Assembly (NCBI GenBank): GCA_036405175.1
Contig: DASWYC010000002.1
Span: forward strand, 321,700 to 385,699
Length of the DNA: 64,000 nt
Direction: 5' to 3'
Source: Minisyncoccota bacterium
GTDB taxonomy: Bacteria > Patescibacteriota > Minisyncoccia > Phycocordibacterales > UBA1006
The position numbers and the translations under genes were made by a program. Positions 27,926 to 40,919 of the stretch are shown piece by piece; within the stretch, counting starts at the first letter, position 1, and every line of letters starts with the position of its first letter. A model generated the notes under the pieces. It did not search any database, was not told the DNA's origin, and was given only the letters and a program-made list of their open reading frames with translations.

Positions 27926-28381
27926 ATGTCAATTTCAGTTGAAGATATTAAAACCCTTCGTGATGAGACCGGAATCTCAATGCAGAAATGCAAAGAAGCG
28001 CTTGAAAAAACCAATGGAAACATTGACGAAGCTCGCGCACTTTTGAAAGAAGAATCAGGAAAAGCAGCTGCTAAAAAAGCAGATCGCGAGTTTGGAGCAG
28101 GAGCCATCTTTACCTATGTTCATGCAACCAAAACTATTGGAACCATGATTGAACTCCTTTGCGAAACCGACTTTGTTGCAAAGAACGAAGTATTTGAAGA
28201 ACTCGGCAACAACATTGCGCTTCATGTAACAGCAATGAGCTCTACCGAGGAATCAATTCGTTCAGAAGGATTTGTGAAGGATCCAGAAACTACCATTGAA
28301 ACCTTGCTTGCTCAGGCAACTCAAAAGCTTGGAGAGCGTGTTGACATTGGACGCATTGCTCGTTTTGCAGTGCTCGACTAA
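27926..28381 (+). CDS. tsf: elongation factor Ts (short, 151 aa)
   Basis: UBA-like N-term (TLRDETGISMQKCKEALEKTNGNIDEARALLKE) and partial dimerisation core; classic rpsB-tsf order. Confidence 0.85.
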   Translation: MSISVEDIKTLRDETGISMQKCKEALEKTNGNIDEARALLKEESGKAAAKKADREFGAGAIFTYVHATKTIGTMIELLCETDFVAKNEVFEELGNNIALHVTAMSSTEESIRSEGFVKDPETTIETLLAQATQKLGERVDIGRIARFAVLD

Positions 28382-28386
28382 TTAGT

Positions 28387-28680
28387 ATGATGATCGTGTG
28401 GATAGCGCTTTTGGTGTTGTGGCTTACGCTGATAATTATGGGCGTAATGATCTATCAACAACCGGGCGCTATGCCGCATGAACGTCATTCACTTCACGAA
28501 TATCGCTTTGGAAACTATTGGTTTTCGGTTGACTATCTAAGGATTTTTACTACAATAAGAACACATCTCAAACGAATACAGCGTTTCTGGAAACGAGTGC
28601 TGGTCATCAATAGCCACAAAGTTGTTGATAAGCTGCATAAAGTTTCTAAGAAGCACGTTGATATTCTTGAGCAGCAATAA
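28387..28680 (+). CDS. hypothetical small membrane protein
   Basis: 97 aa, N-terminal TM, basic C-terminus. Confidence 0.4.
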   Translation: MMIVWIALLVLWLTLIIMGVMIYQQPGAMPHERHSLHEYRFGNYWFSVDYLRIFTTIRTHLKRIQRFWKRVLVINSHKVVDKLHKVSKKHVDILEQQ

Positions 28681-28694
28681 TTTGCTGAAAACGC

Positions 28695-28770
28695 GCCGGC
28701 GTAGCTCAGTTGGTAGAGCAACGGTTTTGTAAACCGTAGGTCATCGGTTCGAGCCCGATCTCCGGCTCCA
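28695..28770 (+). tRNA. tRNA-Thr (anticodon UGU)
   Basis: cloverleaf read by hand: D-arm gctcagttggtagagc, anticodon stem acggt/accgt with loop ttTGTaa, T-arm atcggttcgagcccgat, CCA encoded. Confidence 0.85.
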
Positions 28771-28773
28771 TTG

Positions 28774-28805
28774 AAAAATTCCCCAATTTCTGTTGGGGAA
28801 TTTTT
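28774..28805 (+). terminator. rho-independent terminator after tRNA-Thr
   Basis: aaaaattccccaa/ttggggaattttt 13-bp perfect stem. Confidence 0.65.
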
Positions 28806-28872
28806 CAATTGACTTTTGATCTGTTTAAATATACAGTTCAAGTGAATTTGTCACCTTCTAAACTTTACAACA

Positions 28873-29331
28873 ATGTTAAATCTCATTAAAAGGGATAGAC
28901 CCGTATCTTCTGGTCGCGCGCCCTATGCTTTACCTGTTAACGATAGTGAGAAAAAAGAAATGACCGCAAGAATGTTCGAACTCATCAAAAAGCAATTCCC
29001 ATTATTTTTTAGCGAACAATACACAGTGGGGGGATTTGCATTCCGCATCCTCAAAAAACCATGTTCGTTTGATCAGCTAGAAACTTTTCTACAAATTTCC
29101 ACCCGACTAATTTCGGAAAAGAATGAATCTCAACTACTAGAGCTTGTCCAACTCTTAAAAAGAGAAAATATTATCACTTCGCGAAACACCATCTATTTAA
29201 TTTCAGGCAAACCTCCGACAAAGAATTTTTCTTACTTTGACAAGAATGGTCTTCAAGTTTTATTCTTTGGAGATACTTCTAACGTTGGAAGCTACCAAAT
29301 ACCCTCCGGTTCAATAATTTTTCTCACGTAG
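28873..29331 (+). CDS. hypothetical protein (152 aa)
   Basis: intact ORF in AT-rich segment; no recognisable domain. Confidence 0.5.
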   Translation: MLNLIKRDRPVSSGRAPYALPVNDSEKKEMTARMFELIKKQFPLFFSEQYTVGGFAFRILKKPCSFDQLETFLQISTRLISEKNESQLLELVQLLKRENIITSRNTIYLISGKPPTKNFSYFDKNGLQVLFFGDTSNVGSYQIPSGSIIFLT

Positions 29332-29343
29332 TTTTGGGTTAAG

Positions 29344-29379
29344 TATAAATACCGCTTTTAAATTAAAGCGGTATTTATA
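29344..29379. terminator. bidirectional terminator between convergent genes
   Basis: tataaataccgcttt/aaagcggtatttata 15-bp perfect stem. Confidence 0.55.
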
Positions 29380-29396
29380 ATCTTGTTGATGCAGAT

Positions 29397-29687
29397 TTAT
29401 TTTTTGTTTTCTTTATTCTTCCATCCACACCATTTGATCAGATGGATGATTAATTTATATACTGCCGCAACCCCGAACAGTCCATAAACAACCTTTGCTA
29501 AAAATCCATAACCAAACAAAAATTCTACAAGATTAAAATTCCACAATCCGTAAAGCGACCAATTGATTCCTCCAATAACTAAGATAATAAGTGTTACGCG
29601 TTTGAGCACATGCCAATGCGAGTGGCATCCGCATGCGCCACATTCTTTACATTCCCCTTCTTTGCAAATTTCACAGGTGTTTTTCAT
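29397..29687 (-). CDS. DUF378-family small membrane protein with N-terminal Cys-rich (CxxC x4) extension
   Basis: C-terminal 65 aa match the DUF378 pattern (GGINWSLYGL..NLVE.LFG....VYGLFGVAAVY); N-term CEICKEGECKECGACGCHSH. Confidence 0.6.
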   Translation of the reverse strand: MKNTCEICKEGECKECGACGCHSHWHVLKRVTLIILVIGGINWSLYGLWNFNLVEFLFGYGFLAKVVYGLFGVAAVYKLIIHLIKWCGWKNKENKK

Positions 29688-29711
29688 ATATTACAAGTAT
29701 ATAACAAAAAA

Positions 29712-29742
29712 TAAGACCTCTTCTAATTTAGAAAAGGTCTTA
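29712..29742 (-). terminator. terminator downstream of kinase gene
   Basis: taagacctcttcta/tagaaaaggtctta stem followed by T-run on minus strand. Confidence 0.55.
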
Positions 29743-29773
29743 CACTTAAAACTTTTTACTTTCTTCTAATAAA

Positions 29774-30535
29774 TTAAATATTAAGCCCCTGACCTATTTG
29801 AACAGCCTGTAAGATTAAAGGAAATATTCTTTCATTTGTTTCTTCGATAGTATCAGTAGGGTTACATTTAATTTTCATAACCGAAACTCCATAGGCCTGC
29901 ATTGCTCCTAAAACAATACCTATTTCATTTTTATCTCTTAAAATTCTCTTATCCACAGCAGTATCAGAGGCATCATCAGGTCTATTTAGAAGCTCTGCAC
30001 GCGCCTTAATTCTTTTACGACATTCTTCCTCCTCTAATTCAAGATAAATAGCGGTTCTCAGAATATTCTTTTTAAAGAATTTAGGTCGCCTTTTAGCATC
30101 TTCCTGAAGAGATTTAAAAAATTGAACGGGAATTTGAACCTGTTCAAAGTTTCTTTCAAATCCAACATTAAAAACAACCTCCGGATTATATACTTGCAAT
30201 GCTCCTGCATAAACATTGTATATAAAACTATTTGATAACATTGTTCCAGAATTTTTAACTTCTGCTGAATTAGAACGAGCAAATTCAGTCTGAAGCAAAA
30301 ACATAGCTTCTTCTTTATTGGTATATTCTGACCTGGACATTTTTTCAAAAATAATACCACTTCCTAAGTGCGCAGAGTTGCGCCCCATACTTATTAGTTT
30401 TTCATTAGCAAGTTTTGCTTGAGTATCTTTTCCAGAACCAGACATACCTATAATAGATATTTGAGTTTCCAGATTAAGCAAATCTAAATTGTCTATAAAA
30501 AACTTTGGTCGGAGTTTAATGTCTTGTAATTCCAT
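29774..30535 (-). CDS. divergent adenylate-kinase-like P-loop nucleoside-monophosphate kinase
   Basis: P-loop ISIIGMSGSGKDTQA (cf. adk GxPGxGKGTQ), downstream RPDD...R motif resembling AK core; 253 aa with extra N-terminal 25 aa; low GC. Confidence 0.55.
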   Translation of the reverse strand: MELQDIKLRPKFFIDNLDLLNLETQISIIGMSGSGKDTQAKLANEKLISMGRNSAHLGSGIIFEKMSRSEYTNKEEAMFLLQTEFARSNSAEVKNSGTMLSNSFIYNVYAGALQVYNPEVVFNVGFERNFEQVQIPVQFFKSLQEDAKRRPKFFKKNILRTAIYLELEEEECRKRIKARAELLNRPDDASDTAVDKRILRDKNEIGIVLGAMQAYGVSVMKIKCNPTDTIEETNERIFPLILQAVQIGQGLNI

Positions 30536-30538
30536 TTT

Positions 30539-30709
30539 CTAAATTTGATTGTTTTTTAGTTTTACATACTCTTCTTTAATAGCGACTACTTCATCTTCTC
30601 CAAAATTATCAATCGAATCAAAGAACTCCTGTTCTGTGATTTGATTCTCCTGTATTTTTTGAAAATATGTAGCGGCAATCTTGGCGGGGTCAATTGGATT
30701 ATCGTCCAT
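30539..30709 (-). CDS. unannotated 56-aa acidic ORF translationally coupled (3-nt spacer) to the kinase gene
   Basis: hand-translated: MDDNPIDPAKIAATYFQKIQENQITEQEFFDSIDNFGEDEVVAIKEEYVKLKNNQI; below the ORF-track length cut-off. Confidence 0.4.
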   Translation of the reverse strand: MDDNPIDPAKIAATYFQKIQENQITEQEFFDSIDNFGEDEVVAIKEEYVKLKNNQI

Positions 30710-30761
30710 AATCTATAAGGGTTTTTAAGTGAATTGATTGCTCAAATTTAGCACAAATTAA

Positions 30762-30787
30762 GAAAACGGTCAATTACGACCGTTTTC
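30762..30787 (-). terminator. rpoD terminator
   Basis: gaaaacggtc-aattac-gaccgttttc perfect 10-bp stem just downstream of rpoD stop. Confidence 0.6.
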
Positions 30788-30801
30788 TTGCGCCAAGCTT
30801 C

Positions 30802-32196
<1,395 letters not shown>

Positions 32197-32225
32197 AAAG
32201 TTAGAATAATACTGATAATATAACG

Positions 32226-33920
32226 CTATTTCGACAAATCGTCAATAAGACGTGATACGGTGGCAATTCTTTCAAGAAGGGTCCGGTCATCTGTTTTAAT
32301 AGCAATCTGCTTAAGAAGCTCTTTGCGCTCCTTTACGAGTGATTCCCGATACGCCTTTTGCACCATTTCTATAAAATATTCATGCGTGATCTCTCCCCCA
32401 AAGATAATCTGGATTTTGGTGAAATTCTGCTCATATATCTCATCTTCTGCTGGGATTTGGGTAATCAGACCTTCAATATATGGTTGATAAACCTGGGGCA
32501 GATTAGCTTGGTAGTCTGGATAGCCATAAAGACACAACTTGACCATTTCCTCGGCTCCTAGGGCATTTTTTTGCTGCTGAGGAGGCATAAATGGAGCTGG
32601 TTCAGAGTGACTACTAATCTGACGCCGCTTTTTATTAAATGTCTCAAATTCTTGATCCAAGATCTCCTTTGACACCTGGGTATGCTGAGCGAGCGAGCGC
32701 ATAAAACCTTCACGTAAGAGTGGCACATAAACCTCAATAATCGGGAAGATTTTTTTATGAAGGGTTGTGCGGACATTTTCCATATCCTGAACGTTCTGGA
32801 AGAGTTCTCCTAAAAACTCGCCCACAGAAATAGTCTTGGTTAAAATGTCTTCCATCTTGCCACCTTCAAGCAAATAATCTGCAGGGTCTTTTCCTGATGA
32901 AATACGTCCAATAGAAATATTTAGACTGTGTGGAATGAGGAGTTTTACGGCATTTTCAATTGCTTTACGTCCAGCTGCATCACTATCAAATAAAATAATT
33001 ACATTGTCAGAAAGCTGACTAATGAGTTTTGCATGAGCTTCGGTAAATGCTGTTCCCGATACTCCCACTGCTTCTGGATAACCATGCTGATGCATCATAA
33101 TCACATCCAGCTGACCTTCTACTAAGATCACTCTTCCTTTTTTAACAATCTCACGCTGAGCAAATTCAATACCATACAGGACGCGCTGTTTTTGATAGAG
33201 CGGCGTCTCGCGAGTGTTCACGTACTTTCCTACTTTATCTGCATCAGTAGTTGATCCGTGTAATGGAAAGATGCGTCCGGTAAATCCGATGATTTCATTT
33301 CTCCGATCACGAATGGGAAACATAATACGCTCACGGAAGGTGTCATAATATGAACCCCGATCATTTTTATTAATCACACCAGCCTCAACTGCTTTATTTA
33401 AATCAACTTTTTTTGCAATCAATTCGTTAGCTAATTGATTGATTTGATTTGCTGTATATCCAATTCTAAATTTTTCAATTGACTCTTTTGTTAGTCCACG
33501 TTTTTTAGTAAGGTAGTCAATCGCTTGTGGAGTTTTATTTAAATTGCGTTCATAGATTTTAGTACTAAACTCCAAAATCTTTTTATACATTTCTGTTTCA
33601 TCTTTTCCGCGAAAGTTTTCATCCTTCCCGCCAAACTCAACAGTAATGCCAACTTGTGTTGCAAAATCTTTTACCGCATCAACAAATGATAGTCCTTCAA
33701 TTTCTTGAATGAATGAAATCACATCGCCACTTTTAGCGCAGCCAAAACAGTGATAGCGCCCTCGGTCAGGAGTTACGTAAAAGGAAGGCGTCCGCTCGCT
33801 ATGGAACGGACACCTCCCCCGTAAGTTACGGCCCGATTTCTCGAGCGCAACATACTTAGCTACAACATCTTCGATGGCAATCTTTTCTTTTATCACAGAG
33901 AGTGCATCGCGGATATTCAT
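32226..33920 (-). CDS. dnaG: DNA primase DnaG
   Basis: CHC2 zinc finger ([13 protein letters not shown]...[10 protein letters not shown]), TOPRIM ([11 protein letters not shown]...DSDAAG). Confidence 0.9.
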
Positions 33921-33932
33921 ATGGTTATCATC

Positions 33933-36900
33933 TTACATCTGGCTGGTTTCTTCGTCAAAAATTTCTTCTTGATCAAGACCCATGTCAATAAAGTCATCAG
34001 CAAATCCGGTTCCTGCTGGAATAAGATTTCCAACAATAACGTTTTCCTTGAGACCACGAAGGAGATCTGAGTCACCACGGATCGCATTAGAAATGATCAT
34101 ACGAGGTGTGTGCTGGAATGACGCTGCGGCCAACCAAGACTTAGTGGTATGCACAACTTCTGAGATTCCCATGAGCACAGTCTTTCCTTCTGCTGGCTTA
34201 CCGCCCAACTTTTCAGTACGCATGTTCTCAAGATTAAGATCAAGAAGTTCCACAACTTCTCCTGAGGTAAAGCGAGTATCTCCCTGATCAACAATCTTAC
34301 GGCGTGCAAACATCTGACGAATAATAAGTTCAAGATGTTTTGCTGCTACTGATGCTGAGTTGAGTTCGTATACGCGGCGGATTTCTGAAAGGATGTAATT
34401 TTCTGTTACTTCTCGTCCAGCGTGTTCCATAAGATCCTGAAGATCGGCAGAACCGTCGGTAAGGATTTGTCCTTTTTCTACGCGTGATCCAATCTTGAAT
34501 TTTGGAAGGATTACACGGCGAGCATCAACTTTCAACATTACCATTCCTGATTTCTTACCACCCTTTGGTGAATCTGGAGCAACTTCGATTACGGTCATCT
34601 GATCTGCATCTTGAGTAATGCTCATGATTTCTCCATCAGTTGGACACACAACAGCTGGTGCTTTTACCGCACGGCGCTCAAAGATTTCTTCAACACGAGG
34701 AAGTCCCTGTGTAATATCGCGTCCTGCAACTCCTCCTGAGTGGAAGGTTCGAAGGGTAAGCTGTGTTCCTGGTTCTCCAATCGCTTGTGACGCAATCGTT
34801 CCTACCGCTTCTCCCACTTTTACTAAGTGGTTGCGTCCAAGGTCGATTCCGTAACACTTCTGACAAATTCCGTAGAGTGATTCGCAGCGAAGTGGTGACT
34901 TAACAGCAACTTCTTTTACGCCAGCTTTTTCAATTTCATCAGCAACATATTTAGTGATGAGTTCATTCTTTTTAACAAGAACTTTTCCTGCTTCATCTTT
35001 AACATCTTGAGCCGCAACGCGTCCCCAAATGTTTGCCGCAAGAGAAATTACCAATCCATCAATATTGTCTTCCTTGGCAAGAATAAATTTCTTGGTGCCA
35101 CAATCTTCTTCACGAATGATCACATCGTGTGCAACGTCATGAAGACGACGGGTAAGGTATCCTGCCTTTGCGGTGTTAAGCGCAGTATCGGCGAGTCCTT
35201 TACGTGCTGTTGTGGTGTTGATGAAGTACTCAAATGGGGTATACCCTTCAATGTATGAAGACGTAATTGGGAATTCAAGAATTTGTCCGGTTGCGTTTTG
35301 AATTGCCCCCTTCATTCCTGATGCCTGGTTGAGGTTTTCCATGTTTCCACGAGCTCCAGACTTAATGATGTCTGAAATTGATTCGGTTTGAGAAAGAATT
35401 CCAGCAAGCGTCTTTTCAACATCCGCCTTAGCTTTTTCCCACGTTTGAATTACCTTCAAGTAGCGTTCGCGATCAGAAATAAATCCTTCTGCAAACTCTT
35501 CGTGAATTTTTACAATTTCCTTGCGAGCTTCTTCAATGATTTCATGCTTTTGTTCTGGAACCGGAACATCACTAAATCCGAAAGTGGTTCCTGAAAGTGT
35601 CATGTACTTAAATCCAAAGTTCTTCATTGCATCAAGAATCTTAGAAGTTTCATCTACTCCGTAGTTGTTGATCATATCGGTCACAAGACGTGAAAGATCT
35701 TTCTTCTTAAGTTCTTTGTTGATGAATGGATTCTCGCTTGGCAACATTGAGTTGAACAAAAGGCGTCCAACCGTAGTTTTGAATGGCTTTCCTTCAAATT
35801 CAGCATACTTTTTCTTTTGTGTTCCCATCACATAAATTTCTGCGCGGAAATCAAGTACACCGTAATCGTACGCAAGAATTGCTTCGTTAGGAGATGAGAA
35901 TGACTTTCCTTCTCCGCGAGCTCCCGGTACTGATTTGGTCATCCAGTAACATCCAAGCACAATATCCTGTGCAGGTGTTGCAATAGGTTCTCCGGTTGCA
36001 GGTTTAAGAATGTTCTTGTTTGCAGCCATCAAAAGACGAGCTTCTGCTTGTGCTTCAAGAGACAAAGGAACATGAACCGCCATCTGGTCTCCATCGAAGT
36101 CCGCGTTAAACGCTGAACATACCAATGGATGAACTTGGATTGCTTTTCCTTCAATAAGCATCGGCTTGAACGCCTGGATTGAAAGACGGTGAAGTGTTGG
36201 CGCACGGTTCAAAAGAACGTACTTTCCAGCAATTACCTTTTCAAGCATTTCCCAAACTTCCGCTGATCCTTCTTCAATAAACTTACTTGCTCCACGGATG
36301 TTAAATGCAAGTCCACGCTTAATAACTTCTGCAATCACAAACGGACGGAAAAGTTCAAGCGCCATGTATTTTGGAAGTCCACATTCATCAATATTAAGAC
36401 GAGGTCCAACCACAATTACTGAACGTCCAGAATAATCTACACGCTTTCCAAGAAGGTTTTGGCGGAAGATTCCCTGCTTTCCTTTAAGATGATCAGAAAG
36501 TGATTTAAGACTGCGGCGTTGTCCCATAGACATTGCCTGGGTTCCGTTTGATTTCTTGATTGAGTTATCAAAGAGTGCGTCGATAGCTTCCTGAAGAATA
36601 CGTTTTTCGTTGCGCAAAATAACATCCGGTGCTGGAATTTCAATCAATTTCTTAAGACGGTTGTTGCGGTTGATAACACGACGATAGAGATCGTTAATAT
36701 CTGATGTTGCATGACGGTTTCCTTCAAGCGCAACCATTGGGCGAAGTGCTGGAGGAATAACAGGAAGCACGGTCACAAACATCCACTCTGGACGTGAGTT
36801 AGTGCGGATCAAAGAACGGATCAAAGAAATGCGCTTTTCAATCTTTGCCTTATTGGCGAGTACTTCTGTTTTATCAAGAGACTCAACCACTTCTGCTTCA

Positions 36901-37589
36901 AGTTGAAGAAGGTCAATATTTTTGAAGATATCATATACCGCTTCTGCTCCGGTTGCTGCTTCAAATACGGTACTAAACTTCAATGAGTATACCTTGTATT
37001 GTGCCTCATTAAGCACCATAAACTTTTGAATAGAAGCAACTTCTGATTTAATTTCTGCAAGACGCTTGCGGAGCTTATCTTTCTCGGCTTCGTCAGTAAG
37101 TGACCCTACGCGAGACTTAAATTCTGCATCAATGTCTTTAAGAACACGTCCACGTTCTTCTTCATCAACTGATTTAACAATGTATCCTGCAAAGTAGATT
37201 ACACTTTCAAGTTTTTGTGCAGGTACGCCAAGAAGCGATGCCATGCGTGATGGAATTCCGCGAAGGAACCAAATGTGTGCAACAGGCGACGCAAGTTCAA
37301 TGTGCCCCATACGTTCACGACGAACGATAGAACGAGTAACTTCAACGCCACATTTATCACACACGACACCGTTGTAGCGGATACGCTTGTATTTTCCACA
37401 ATAACATTCGTAATCTTTTTCTGGCCCAAACACGCGCTCATCAAAGAGTCCGCCGCGTTCGCTGCGTCCAGTACGATAGTTAATCGTTTCTGGCTTTTGA
37501 ATTTCTCCATGTGACCATGAACGGATGGTATCTGGCGATGAAAGTCGCAATCCAACCGAGGTATCAAAGTGTTCGTGAGTAGTATGCAT
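33933..37589 (-). CDS. rpoC: DNA-directed RNA polymerase subunit beta'
   Basis: NADFDGD catalytic motif, zinc-binding CxxC N-term, 1218 aa. Confidence 0.95.
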   Translation of the reverse strand: MHTTHEHFDTSVGLRLSSPDTIRSWSHGEIQKPETINYRTGRSERGGLFDERVFGPEKDYECYCGKYKRIRYNGVVCDKCGVEVTRSIVRRERMGHIELASPVAHIWFLRGIPSRMASLLGVPAQKLESVIYFAGYIVKSVDEEERGRVLKDIDAEFKSRVGSLTDEAEKDKLRKRLAEIKSEVASIQKFMVLNEAQYKVYSLKFSTVFEAATGAEAVYDIFKNIDLLQLEAEVVESLDKTEVLANKAKIEKRISLIRSLIRTNSRPEWMFVTVLPVIPPALRPMVALEGNRHATSDINDLYRRVINRNNRLKKLIEIPAPDVILRNEKRILQEAIDALFDNSIKKSNGTQAMSMGQRRSLKSLSDHLKGKQGIFRQNLLGKRVDYSGRSVIVVGPRLNIDECGLPKYMALELFRPFVIAEVIKRGLAFNIRGASKFIEEGSAEVWEMLEKVIAGKYVLLNRAPTLHRLSIQAFKPMLIEGKAIQVHPLVCSAFNADFDGDQMAVHVPLSLEAQAEARLLMAANKNILKPATGEPIATPAQDIVLGCYWMTKSVPGARGEGKSFSSPNEAILAYDYGVLDFRAEIYVMGTQKKKYAEFEGKPFKTTVGRLLFNSMLPSENPFINKELKKKDLSRLVTDMINNYGVDETSKILDAMKNFGFKYMTLSGTTFGFSDVPVPEQKHEIIEEARKEIVKIHEEFAEGFISDRERYLKVIQTWEKAKADVEKTLAGILSQTESISDIIKSGARGNMENLNQASGMKGAIQNATGQILEFPITSSYIEGYTPFEYFINTTTARKGLADTALNTAKAGYLTRRLHDVAHDVIIREEDCGTKKFILAKEDNIDGLVISLAANIWGRVAAQDVKDEAGKVLVKKNELITKYVADEIEKAGVKEVAVKSPLRCESLYGICQKCYGIDLGRNHLVKVGEAVGTIASQAIGEPGTQLTLRTFHSGGVAGRDITQGLPRVEEIFERRAVKAPAVVCPTDGEIMSITQDADQMTVIEVAPDSPKGGKKSGMVMLKVDARRVILPKFKIGSRVEKGQILTDGSADLQDLMEHAGREVTENYILSEIRRVYELNSASVAAKHLELIIRQMFARRKIVDQGDTRFTSGEVVELLDLNLENMRTEKLGGKPAEGKTVLMGISEVVHTTKSWLAAASFQHTPRMIISNAIRGDSDLLRGLKENVIVGNLIPAGTGFADDFIDMGLDQEEIFDEETSQM

Positions 37590-37607
37590 ATAGATGAGTG
37601 CTAATGA

Positions 37608-40600
37608 TTAAGCAATAATATCGAGGCTTGTATCGACGTTAGTAAGCGCATCAAGTTCGCCAATCGGTGGCAAATCCTCACGGTAGAAGTCATCAATTTC
37701 ATTTGTGGTATCAAAGGTTCCGCTTTCTGCTTCAAGAAGTTCAGTCAAATTATCATCACGTTTAATCGTGTGCAAGTGAACATCAAGTGCAAGTCCACGA
37801 AGGTAGTTAAGCAATACATGGAATGATGCAGGGCGAGCTGAAACTTTTACGTTATCTCCCTTAATGATTGAATCAAAGGCAGCTGAACGTCCAACAATAT
37901 CATCAGACTTAACGGTCAACATTTCACGCAATACGTGTGCCGCTCCATATCCTTCAAGTGCCCACACCTCCATTTCTCCAAAGCGCTGTCCTCCAAATTG
38001 AGATTTTCCAGAAAGAGGCTGCTGGGTAATGAGTGAGTATGGTCCAATTGAACGGGCGTGCATTTTGTCATCAACCATGTGGTGAAGACGAAGCATATAC
38101 ATGTATCCAACTGAAACATCTTGTTGGAACTTTTCTCCGGTGCGTCCGTCAAAGAGTTTAACTTTTCCGGTTTTATCAAATCCTCCCTTTTCAAGTTCGG
38201 TTTCAATTTCTGCACGTGTTGCTCCCATGAATGGAGGAACAATTGCCTGGTAATCAAGTGAGTTTGCTGCAAGTCCAAGGTGAAGTTCAAGAATCTGTCC
38301 GAGGTTCATACGACTTGGTACTCCAAGTGGTGTAAGAACAATATCAACAGGAGTTCCGTCTGCGGTGTATGGCATATCTTCTTCTGGAAGAATAACCGAG
38401 ATAACACCTTTGTTTCCGTGACGTCCTGCAAGTTTATCTCCCACGGCAACTGGGCGTACGTGTGCAACTTCAACAAAGATCTTTTTAATAACACCTGATT
38501 CAAGCTGGTGTCCTTGTTCGCGCGAAAATACTTTCACACTTACAACACGACCACGTTTTCCGTGTCCAAGGCGAAGTGACGTATCTTTAACATCGCGTGC
38601 TTTTTCTCCAAAGATTGATCGAAGAAGACGCTCTTCTGGAGTAAGTTCGGTTTCACCCTTTGGTGTAATCTTTCCAACCAAAATATCTCCTTCGCGAACA
38701 TCTGCTCCTACGCGAACAATTCCTTCTTCATCAAGATTCTTAAGCTTAGCTTCTCCAACGTTAGGAATATCAGGCGTCATTTGCTCAGCACCAAGTTTGG
38801 TATCGCGAACAACACATTCATATTCTTCAATGCGAACGGTTGAGAATTTATTATTCTTAACGAGTCTTTCAGATACCACAATCGCATCCTCATAGGTGTT
38901 TCCACGCCATGCCATAAATGCAACAAAGATGTTCTGTCCGATTGCCAATTCTCCATTTACGGTTGTTGGACAGTCAGCAATAATATCTCCGGCTTTAACG
39001 GTTTGACCAAGTGAAACAGAAGGACGTTGGTGATACACGGAGTCATTATTAGTACGTGCATATCCCATCAATTCGTATGAACGAATCTTTCCATTTTCTT
39101 GCTTGATAGAAATAGCTTTTCCATCAACATGGCAAATTGTTCCATCAACATCAGCAACCACCACACGTCCCGTGTAGCGCGCTGCCTGAATTTCCATTCC
39201 TGTTGCAACAATAGGAGCTTCTGGAACCAAACAAGGAGTCGCCTGTTTCTGCATGTTAGAACCCATGAGTGCGCGGTTTGCTGCATCTGAGTCCATAAAT
39301 GGAATCAAGTTCGTTGCCAATGAGAACATTTGGTTTGAAGACACATCAATATATTGAACATCCTGTTTTGGCACAAAGGTTGGCATCCCAAATTTGCGCA
39401 CTTCAACAAGATCCTGAGTAATGTTCATTTTGTCATCAAACGGCGTAAGAGAGTGAGCAATATTGCTACGCTCTTCTTCTGCAGCCGTCATATATACTAC
39501 CTCCTTGGTAATTTTTCCATCCTTAACTTTTACATAAGGAGTTTCAATCATTCCAAACTCGTTGATCTTTGCGTAGATTGCAATAGAAAGCACAAGTCCA
39601 ATGTTTGGACCTTCTGGGGTATGAATAGGACAAATACGTCCATAGTGTGAAGGATGAACGTCACGCACTTCAAAGCCGGCGCGTTCACGAGTGAGTCCTC
39701 CCGGTCCAAGCGCAGACAAGCGGCGCAAGTGCTCAATTTCTGTAAGCGCATTTTCCTGGTCCATGAATTGAGACAGCTGGTTGGTTGCAAAGAATTCACG
39801 AATACGTGCCTGAAGCGGACGCTGGTTAATAAGCACAATAGGAAGGGTCGTTTCTGCATCAATCGTAGACATTTTGTCTTGAATGTTGCGCTTCATCTGC
39901 ATCATTCCTTTACGTACCGATTGTTCAAGAAGTTCACCAACGTAGCGAACACGGCGCATTCCCAAGTGGTCAATATCGTCAGCCTTTGCTCCCGAAACAG
40001 CCATCATTTCTCCAATGTGGTTGATGATTGTTGCAATATCCTGTGCATCAACAACGCGCTTCTCAAGATCTTTTGATCCGAGCGGCAAATCAAAACGTTT
40101 ATTAAACTGGAAGCGTCCTACATCAGAAATATCGTAACGCTCAGCACTAAACATAGACATCACAAATTCGCGAGCTTGTTCTGGAGTTGCAAGATCACCG
40201 TCACGAAGACGCTTGTGAATTTCGATGAATGCTTCATCGGTTGTAGTGGTTGGATCTTTTGCAAGTGAGGTTGCCGCAATTTTCATTGCGTTTTCGTTTG
40301 TCAAAAGCGCCATGATTTTTTCTTTGGTTTCTGCTCCAAATACTTTAAAGAGTACTGATACTGGGAACTTACGCTTCTTATCTACGCGTACATACATTCC
40401 TCCATCTGGCTCAACATCAAGCTCAACCCATACTCCACGTGATGGAATGATTTTAGCACCATAAAACACACCTTTTTTGGTGTCATTTTGGGTAAAGTAA
40501 ATACCATATGAGCGTGCAAGCTGTGGTACCACAACACGTTCTACTCCGTTAATAATGAAGGTTCCGTGTTCGGTCATGATTGGAACTTCGGTAAGAGTAA

Positions 40601-40919
40601 TTTCTTGCTCTTGTTCGGTTCCGAGAATTTTATTCTTGAGAACAAATGAGGTTTTAATATTTGCCTCGTAGGTTAATTTATTCTCTTTTGCATAGTATTC
40701 ATCTTGATCTGGATATTCAATTCTAAAATCTGAAATCGTGAGATCAAATTTCTTACCTGCGTAATCTGAAATTGGAGCGTACCCTTTAATAACTGATTCA
40801 AAACTTTTCGTAAGAAACTTACGATATGATTCCACTTGGTTCTCTACCAAGTTTGGAACCGGAAGGAATGATTCCTTGTAGCGTGAAAAATATTTCTTAG
40901 GACGGACGTTACTTTGCAT
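37608..40919 (-). CDS. rpoB: DNA-directed RNA polymerase subunit beta
   Basis: 1103 aa, conserved rif-region and C-terminal motifs. Confidence 0.95.
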   Translation of the reverse strand: MQSNVRPKKYFSRYKESFLPVPNLVENQVESYRKFLTKSFESVIKGYAPISDYAGKKFDLTISDFRIEYPDQDEYYAKENKLTYEANIKTSFVLKNKILGTEQEQEITLTEVPIMTEHGTFIINGVERVVVPQLARSYGIYFTQNDTKKGVFYGAKIIPSRGVWVELDVEPDGGMYVRVDKKRKFPVSVLFKVFGAETKEKIMALLTNENAMKIAATSLAKDPTTTTDEAFIEIHKRLRDGDLATPEQAREFVMSMFSAERYDISDVGRFQFNKRFDLPLGSKDLEKRVVDAQDIATIINHIGEMMAVSGAKADDIDHLGMRRVRYVGELLEQSVRKGMMQMKRNIQDKMSTIDAETTLPIVLINQRPLQARIREFFATNQLSQFMDQENALTEIEHLRRLSALGPGGLTRERAGFEVRDVHPSHYGRICPIHTPEGPNIGLVLSIAIYAKINEFGMIETPYVKVKDGKITKEVVYMTAAEEERSNIAHSLTPFDDKMNITQDLVEVRKFGMPTFVPKQDVQYIDVSSNQMFSLATNLIPFMDSDAANRALMGSNMQKQATPCLVPEAPIVATGMEIQAARYTGRVVVADVDGTICHVDGKAISIKQENGKIRSYELMGYARTNNDSVYHQRPSVSLGQTVKAGDIIADCPTTVNGELAIGQNIFVAFMAWRGNTYEDAIVVSERLVKNNKFSTVRIEEYECVVRDTKLGAEQMTPDIPNVGEAKLKNLDEEGIVRVGADVREGDILVGKITPKGETELTPEERLLRSIFGEKARDVKDTSLRLGHGKRGRVVSVKVFSREQGHQLESGVIKKIFVEVAHVRPVAVGDKLAGRHGNKGVISVILPEEDMPYTADGTPVDIVLTPLGVPSRMNLGQILELHLGLAANSLDYQAIVPPFMGATRAEIETELEKGGFDKTGKVKLFDGRTGEKFQQDVSVGYMYMLRLHHMVDDKMHARSIGPYSLITQQPLSGKSQFGGQRFGEMEVWALEGYGAAHVLREMLTVKSDDIVGRSAAFDSIIKGDNVKVSARPASFHVLLNYLRGLALDVHLHTIKRDDNLTELLEAESGTFDTTNEIDDFYREDLPPIGELDALTNVDTSLDIIA

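Follow-up and report, generated by a model that had tools for sequence, protein, structure and literature searches.

An adenylate-kinase-family gene and a Cys-rich DUF378 gene in a probable conserved spacer, rather than a tRNA-integrated island, between rpoD and tRNA-Thr of a Candidatus Paceibacterota genome

The DNA examined here is a 64,000-nucleotide stretch of contig DASWYC010000002.1 (the window), from a genome, abbreviated W, of Candidatus Paceibacterota, a lineage of the Candidate Phyla Radiation (CPR). The subject is the segment at window positions 28774-30800, which lies between tRNA-Thr(UGU) and rpoD and contains, in order from the tRNA, a 152-codon open reading frame (ORF152), a gene for a DUF378 membrane protein with a Cys-rich N-terminus, a gene for a P-loop kinase, and a 56-codon micro-ORF directly upstream of the kinase. 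A short note written earlier from the sequence, referred to here as the original prediction, had described the tRNA with its terminator and these four ORFs, and all were found as described. It had also called the micro-ORF unannotated, which was incorrect: NCBI records HEY1041493-97 (locus tags VGE63_02085-02110) are exact matches to window proteins, and the micro-ORF is public as hypothetical protein HEY1041497.1 (VGE63_02110). The segment had been interpreted, tentatively, as an old, decayed island or a lineage-specific cassette. The comparisons reported below make it probable that two core gene blocks, rpsB-tsf-ORF97-tRNA-Thr and rpoB-rpoC-dnaG-rpoD, converge here on a conserved spacer, and that the segment is not an island integrated at the tRNA.

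Gene order in W was compared with that in two relatives. One of these (L001), a contig of 63 kb, has core proteins with 90-97% identity to those of W; the other (L010, contig JAYVHO010000010.1) was found by a genome scan with elongation factor Ts (Tsf), and its core proteins are 81-88% identical to those of W. The order in L001 is rpoB, rpoC, dnaG, rpoD, a 54-residue ORF, a 253-residue kinase, DUF378, approximately 300 bp of unrelated DNA, tRNA-Thr, ORF94, tsf and rpsB. That in L010 is rpsB, tsf, ORF96, tRNA-Thr, a 50-bp hairpin, a 105-residue DUF378 protein with the same six-cysteine (Cys6) head, a 208-residue kinase, an 80-bp terminator, rpoD, dnaG, rpoC and rpoB. A kinase gene and a Cys6-DUF378 gene are therefore found between rpoD and tRNA-Thr in all three genomes, and in L010 the pair directly abuts the tRNA. 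The tRNA-Thr(UGU) is itself 100% identical in the three genomes and forms the fixed left boundary of a variable spacer. Neither relative lacks the kinase/DUF378 block; only the spacer that holds ORF152 differs. The gene order around the tRNA is thus shared for two of the three units that the original prediction had distinguished, and ORF152 is the unit for which it is not. Shared order of this kind is what the original prediction had named as speaking for a core region and against an island.

Between W and L001, identity is 93% for the kinase, 91% for the micro-ORF and 78% for the DUF378 protein, compared with 90% for rpoD, 93% for tsf and 90% for rpsB; the divergence of the three segment genes is comparable to that of the flanking core genes. 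Between W and L010 the values are 88% for RpoC, 85% for Tsf, 83% for RpoD, 81% for RpsB, 62% for DnaG, 58% for DUF378 and 45% for ORF97. Metagenome scans with a DUF378 alignment and with an ORF97 alignment yielded no further relatives. One candidate from these scans (L013) was a false positive, a Bacteroidota-type surface protein sharing the string WFSVDYL, and two further loci from the Tsf scan, in a Parachlamydiales metagenome-assembled genome and in a Phytoplasma, were irrelevant.

Table 1. Features of the segment and its borders, in window coordinates
Feature	Position	Strand	Basis
tRNA-Thr(UGU)	28695-28770	+	ARAGORN; Rfam RF00005, 67.9 bits
Hairpin terminator directly 3' of tRNA-Thr	28770-28809	+	terminator scan; different hairpin sequence in each of three lineages
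Hypervariable tRNA-proximal spacer	28771-29396	.	MAFFT alignment, blastn, L010 sequence
ORF152 (152 aa)	28873-29331	+	ORF call
Perfect 15-bp-stem hairpin between convergent ORF152 and DUF378, putative bidirectional terminator	29344-29379	.	
DUF378 membrane protein, 96 aa	29397-29687	-	PF04070; alignment; synteny
DUF378 codons 1-26, CxxC-x4-CxxC-x2-CxC	29610-29687	-	three-lineage alignment
Terminator hairpin 3' of kinase	29711-29743	-	100% conserved in L001
Divergent adenylate-kinase-family NMP (nucleoside monophosphate) kinase, 253 aa	29774-30535	-	motifs, alignment, fold model
Micro-ORF, 56 aa, acidic, isoelectric point (pI) 4.1	30539-30709	-	ORF call
Promoter-like site TTGACC-17-TAAATT preceded by TG, for micro-ORF/kinase unit	30745-30773	-	consensus match only
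rpoD terminator hairpin, right boundary of segment	30760-30789	-	kept in L001 with one loop change

The segment is rich in terminator-like sites, with five found against 1.8 +/- 1.1 in shuffled sequences. An Rfam scan of positions 28300-31000 gave no match besides tRNA-Thr.

The DUF378 protein matches PF04070 over residues 27-80 (57.5 bits, cut-off 25), is named a DUF378 domain-containing protein by NCBI, and has the size and hydrophobic pattern typical of these two-helix membrane proteins. It differs from the family in carrying a 26-residue N-terminal extension with six cysteines. C5, C8, C13, C16, C19 and C21 are invariant in the three lineages, as are S23-H24, and the extension is the most conserved part of the protein, the membrane domain having drifted to 58%. 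The original prediction had read this head as a metal-binding-like CxxC-x4-CxxC-x2-CGC-HSH motif; the cysteine pattern holds across the lineages, but the histidines (HSH or HWH) are not invariant. It had also described the extension as unusual, and this was borne out by plasmid and phage homologues, 72 of 72 of which align to residues 22-85 only and leave the extension uncovered.

Basic residues lie at both ends of the two hydrophobic helices (K29 and R30, and the C-terminal KNKENKK), an arrangement suggesting a cytoplasmic location for the two termini and thus for the Cys6 motif. To judge from the sequence, zinc or an iron-sulfur cluster is the most likely ligand of the motif. No solved structure matched the protein, and the literature searched held no functional information on DUF378; one paper on BREX that had appeared relevant concerns DUF3780. 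The family has no known function.

The kinase gene encodes a protein with most of the landmarks of the short adenylate kinases, as mapped by alignment with PF00406 proteins, AK1 and E. coli Adk. Those of AK1 are R44 (R36 in E. coli) as the NMP-binding arginine, R97 and Q101, and, in the LID, R128, R132, R138, D140-D141 and R149. The P-loop of the W kinase (G30-M-S-G-S-G-K36-D-T-Q, or GMSGSGKDTQ) is invariant in the alignment, albeit with the Gly that normally follows the lysine replaced by Asp, and G125-F-E-R128-N-F-E-Q132 corresponds to the G-F/Y-P-R...Q motif. LID residues R175, R179, R185, D187-D188 and R197 have exactly the spacing of AK1 (R-x3-R-x5-R-x-D-D...R). The P-loop (G-x-x-G-x-G-K), H-x-x-x-G and G-F-x-R...Q elements are shared with AK1 (3adk), Thermus Adk (3cm0) and yeast Ura6 (1ukz). 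An AlphaFold2 (AF2) model with a predicted local distance difference test score (pLDDT) of 66 shows the three domains of an NMP kinase (CORE, NMP and LID), and its best Foldseek matches are short adenylate kinases (3cm0, E = 7.6e-7). The earlier description of the protein as adenylate-kinase-like is thus upheld by motifs and predicted fold alike. Codon differences between W and L001 (31 synonymous, 17 non-synonymous) indicate purifying selection.

The protein differs from the short adenylate kinases in its length (253 residues against roughly 185-215), which reflects a 22-residue N-terminal extension and three insertions, one of them a 13-residue insertion specific to the clade. It differs also in context, since the gene sits after rpoD, with the micro-ORF upstream, and not in the spc operon after secY. 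No other adk-type P-loop was found in the 64-kb window, and no spc operon (secY-adk) was found within 10 kb beyond either window end.

NCBI annotates the W kinase as hypothetical. A word-index homology search returned only the protein itself or its L001 orthologue, and phmmer against 1.84e9 representatives returned the L001 orthologue and four marginal matches, and the three that were looked at more closely all proved to be PF00406 proteins. In L010, the kinase at the corresponding position passes the Pfam ADK model (50.6 bits, cut-off 26.8) and falls short of the NCBIfam threshold (73.8 against 187). BLASTP aligns the W and L010 kinases with E = 2e-7, and the best-matching part of that alignment is the 13-residue insertion in the NMP domain, which is common to the W, L001 and L010 kinases and absent from reference proteins P0003 and P0005, AK1 and E. 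coli Adk. Because the insertion is shared by the three and missing from the reference adenylate kinases, it is evidence for a single gene lineage comprising the W/L001 and L010 kinases.

The W kinase descends from the adenylate/UMP-CMP kinase family, while failing the curated thresholds and lacking one defining residue of that family (see below). It has the appearance of a functional NMP kinase whose predicted ATP site is intact and whose acceptor site seems to have been remodelled.

The start codon of the kinase lies 3 nucleotides after the stop codon of the micro-ORF (TAG-AAA-ATG), as the original prediction had stated, and the two share a reading frame in W; L001 has 16 nucleotides between them and different frames. 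The micro-ORF is present only in W (56 residues) and L001 (54 residues), is absent from L010, and appeared together with the 22-residue N-terminal extension of the kinase. The case for its translation is weak. Its length alone is not evidence of coding, because 60% of segment shuffles yield a 56-codon ORF, and the 10 codon differences between W and L001 are divided equally between synonymous and non-synonymous (5 and 5). It has no Pfam or NCBIfam family, no PDB match and no homologue beyond the L001 orthologue. Translation is favoured by a conserved start codon, by its being called as a gene in both genomes, and by the exactness with which it fills the gap between the promoter-like site and the kinase. 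The micro-ORF is probably a small protein or a leader peptide. A structured-RNA reading of the leader was dropped (RNA-fold z = -1.08, with no Rfam match to the region), and read-through of the stop codon to fuse micro-ORF and kinase was rejected because their frames differ in L001. The -35 element (TTGACC) of the candidate micro-ORF/kinase promoter, itself a consensus match only, lies within the rpoD terminator hairpin, and this compact overlap is also present in L001.

Between the 3' end of the tRNA and the stop codon of DUF378, the three genomes cannot be aligned. This interval measures approximately 625 bp in W, 300 bp in L001 and 50 bp in L010, and blastn detected no similarity between the genomes within it; even the tRNA terminator differs. 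In W it holds ORF152, which encodes a basic (pI 9.5), soluble protein and is absent from both L001 and L010. The protein has no Pfam, NCBIfam, PHROG or PADLOC family and no match in phages, plasmids or IMG/VR, and a search of 5.8e9 clusters returned only the protein itself. None of 500 segment shuffles produced an ORF of 152 or more codons, and ORF152 is therefore too long to be a chance ORF. Its single-sequence AF2 model (pLDDT 48) was unusable. ORF152 is the sole truly genome-specific gene of the segment and may have arisen de novo or have been acquired from a source not yet sampled.

Four listed Logan contigs that carry ORF152 (L006-L009, from different runs) all end at the same base, window position 28713, inside tRNA-Thr. 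A presence/absence polymorphism of ORF152 was considered as the cause and rejected, as the contigs continue unbroken through DUF378 and the kinase; the shared end most likely reflects a tangle in the assembly graph, where co-occurring relatives have the same tRNA sequence.

The features that suggested an island, that is, a decayed or horizontally acquired element integrated at the 3' end of tRNA-Thr and spanning the whole 2 kb, can be set against these comparisons. The predicted drop in guanine-plus-cytosine (GC) content is real: the segment has a GC of 0.337 against 0.400 for the window (standard deviation among 2-kb windows, 0.021), which is the lowest value of any 2-kb window. It begins directly 3' of a tRNA, holds hypothetical or orphan genes, and has a tRNA-proximal spacer that is truly hypervariable. 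As in known tRNA-associated islands, variable DNA starts exactly at the tRNA 3' end and an orphan gene is found in one lineage only. However, the GC dip arises mainly from the kinase (GC 0.331; GC at third codon positions, GC3, 0.213), the micro-ORF (GC 0.333) and four AT-rich spacers, whereas ORF152 (GC3 0.353) and DUF378 (GC3 0.361) are of native composition, within the range of window genes (0.337 +/- 0.045). The original prediction had seen neither an integrase nor a repeated tRNA 3' end, and the searches agree. None of the four ORFs belongs to an integrase, transposase, recombinase, phage or mobility family (Pfam, NCBIfam, PHROG, PADLOC); a 25-mer of the tRNA 3' end with up to 3 mismatches and a 15-mer with up to 2 match only the tRNA itself in 64 kb; and a direct-repeat search found no relevant repeat.

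The part that is unique to W amounts to only about 0.6 kb, unlike in such islands, and the remainder is syntenic in the relatives. The kinase and DUF378 share their position in both relatives, lying next to the tRNA in L010, and they have diverged between W and L001 as far as the core genes have; the segment is for this reason not a tRNA-targeted island. The island reading is largely refuted by synteny, and we consider it very improbable. Of the description as a lineage-specific cassette, the part that stands concerns ORF152, confined to W, and the micro-ORF and N-terminal extension of the kinase, confined to W and L001; it does not apply to the kinase and DUF378 themselves, which L010 shares.

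Several observations weigh against the reading of the segment as a conserved spacer with long-standing residents. Only two relatives could be retrieved from all the collections searched, so that conservation here means conservation in three genomes. The kinase gave no match to PF00406 at E <= 0.1, and its best NCBIfam adk match (26.4 bits) lies far below the cut-off of 187; its predicted structure is of moderate confidence only. In the stretch H56-L-G-S-G-I-I-F-E64-K65, W and L001 have Glu at the position equivalent to AK1 R44, where L010 has Arg, so that AMP-kinase activity cannot be taken for granted. Identity between the W and L010 kinases is only about 25-30%, against 81-88% for their core neighbours, and overall the W kinase is no closer to the L010 kinase than to unrelated ADKs. 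Among the 52 genes in the window the kinase has the lowest GC, and its GC3, likewise the lowest found, lies 2.8 standard deviations below their mean; the GC3 values of 0.213 in W and 0.224 in L001 compare with 0.31-0.45 for other genes of these genomes. The low GC3 fits replacement better than simple vertical descent.

Such a replacement would have exchanged a cassette of micro-ORF and kinase (approximately 29774-30709) into the adk slot of the common ancestor of W and L001, by homologous recombination through the rpoD and DUF378 flanks, with a lower-GC member of the Paceibacterota carrying the same AK subfamily as donor and an L010-like adk displaced. Consistent with this, the GC3 of the kinase resembles the 0.20-0.25 of the L010-type genome, its identity to the positional counterpart is low when the neighbours are well conserved, its LID architecture differs from that in L010, and the micro-ORF and N-terminal extension arrive together with this allele. 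A further observation bears on the locus: a tract of approximately 450 nucleotides (29683-30130), covering the 3' part of the kinase, its terminator, and the promoter and start of DUF378, is 98-100% identical between W and L001, in a 21-kb syntenic block that averages 87.8 +/- 7.9%. No other tract of this kind is as long, and it is probably a recent recombination or gene-conversion tract, which suggests that the locus recombines. Against replacement, the 13-residue insertion and the local similarity shared with the L010 kinase mark the two as the same gene lineage, no donor-like sequence was found in 1.84e9 representatives or 5.8e9 clusters, the GC3 of a single gene of 253 codons carries little statistical weight, and the GC3 of the micro-ORF is not low (0.316, 0.382). 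Replacement in situ is a credible possibility, though not the outcome we would expect. For the origin of the kinase as such, vertical descent with a burst of divergence is given slightly more than even weight and replacement through homologous flanks a substantial minority share; neither proceeds via integration at the tRNA. The GC3 anomaly leaves open that this single gene was exchanged, in which case the exchange took place within a conserved slot.

Two other readings were considered. The kinase might be a degenerating or dead relic of an adenylate kinase, with the micro-ORF an untranslated leader that is open by chance. The loss of the NMP-phosphate arginine (E64), the extreme divergence and AT-drift at third positions would agree with decay, as would the ease with which an ORF of this length arises in shuffles and the equal numbers of synonymous and non-synonymous changes within it. 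But the kinase ORF is intact in two lineages at 93% identity with an excess of synonymous differences, its ATP-site and LID residues are all kept at exact AK1 spacing, it has its own promoter-like site and a conserved terminator, and the leader has no special RNA structure (z = -1.1); a relic is accordingly quite unlikely.

The pair might instead be a translationally coupled toxin-antitoxin or defence system of the epsilon/zeta (PezAT) type, in which, as here, a small acidic ORF directly precedes a P-loop phosphotransferase of approximately 250 residues. PezT (2p5t) is among the Foldseek matches of the kinase model (E = 7.9e-5), and PADLOC gives a weak match to VakA (E = 0.002). However, the PezT fold ranks far behind the NMP kinases, there is no match to PF06414 (Zeta_toxin), and the AK1-type LID and the GF-x-R/Q NMP motif are present. 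The L010 counterpart is a bona fide ADK with no upstream ORF, the micro-ORF has no homologue but its own orthologue, and neither the spacing nor the frame between ORF and kinase is conserved. A system of the PezAT type is, in our judgement, most improbable.

The favoured explanation is thus that the segment is a conserved spacer between the two core gene blocks, with two residents and two lineage-restricted additions. The first resident would be an NMP kinase of the adenylate kinase family, occupying what appears to be the adk slot of the clade just downstream of rpoD. In the predicted reaction, ATP would bind at the P-loop (K36), the AK1-type short LID (R175, R179, R185 and R197 with D187-D188) would close over it, and the gamma-phosphate would be transferred to a nucleoside monophosphate held in the enlarged NMP-binding domain (R128, Q132). 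The acceptor site in W and L001 appears to be remodelled by Glu64 and the extra insertions, and its preference may differ from AMP. The second resident would be the two-helix DUF378 membrane protein, with its Cys6 motif presumably facing the cytoplasm. To these, the common lineage of W and L001 would have added the micro-ORF and the N-terminal extension of the kinase, and W alone would have gained ORF152, in a spacer that turns over fully directly 3' of the tRNA.

A stronger proposal can be made for the kinase: that in W and L001 the housekeeping adk slot now belongs to an NMP kinase that has been re-specialised, with an intact ATP site and a rebuilt acceptor site (Arg to Glu, enlarged NMP domain), and that a recently evolved acidic partner of 56 residues, encoded directly upstream, cooperates with it or regulates it. 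This we hold to be unlikely. If true, the enzyme might shift or broaden the specificity of nucleotide salvage, for example towards GMP or other NMPs, and the locus would offer a rare view of a core enzyme being re-invented alongside a de novo small protein while RpoC is still 88% identical. Because CPR bacteria depend on scavenged nucleotides, much of their metabolism is carried by few NMP kinases. Adk is among the core nucleotide-salvage functions of one CPR bacterium that has been cultivated (bioRxiv 10.64898/2026.06.21.733656).

The region is mostly ordinary, with one enzyme worth biochemical study. The kinase combines a conserved slot with near-orphan status (15 billion proteins contain two such sequences), an altered residue at the NMP site and an odd codon composition, and is as such a candidate for altered acceptor specificity. 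That the NCBI pipeline labels it hypothetical illustrates how automated annotation can lose core functions in CPR genomes. The invariant Cys6 head provides a testable handle, metal binding, on the DUF378 family. For genome scanning, low GC beside a tRNA is insufficient for calling an island; what is truly accessory here is 0.6 kb and one ORFan.

Some minor observations concern the flanking core genes. ORF97 (28387-28680, plus strand), between tsf and tRNA-Thr, encodes a lineage-specific protein with a single transmembrane segment and no family; its start differs between public gene calls (97 or 77 residues). Its motif EYRFGN-WFSVDYL-IF-TIRT is invariant in all three genomes, with an overall identity to L010 of 45%. 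The adjacent elongation factor Ts (27926-28381, plus strand) has only 151 residues and matches the first 76 or so of 204 EF_TS positions together with the UBA/N-terminal domain; this short form is common to the relatives.

On the other side of the segment, the one-strand order rpoB-rpoC-dnaG-rpoD (30802-40919, minus strand) is unusual and is kept in all three genomes, and DnaG has changed much more quickly than its neighbours RpoC and RpoD (62% identity to L010, against 88% and 83%). The N-terminus of RpoD (31900-32196, minus strand) is a histone-H1-like tail of approximately 100 residues rich in Lys, Ala and Pro, with a weak match to PF07382 HC2 (E = 0.003). This tail is hypervariable between relatives, with 63-67% nucleotide identity against approximately 93% for the remainder of rpoD. 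Finally, most L010 genes have a GC3 of 0.20-0.25 (range 0.20-0.31), against 0.31-0.45 in W and L001, while the core proteins are still 81-88% identical, indicating a rapid genome-wide shift in GC within this Paceibacterota clade.

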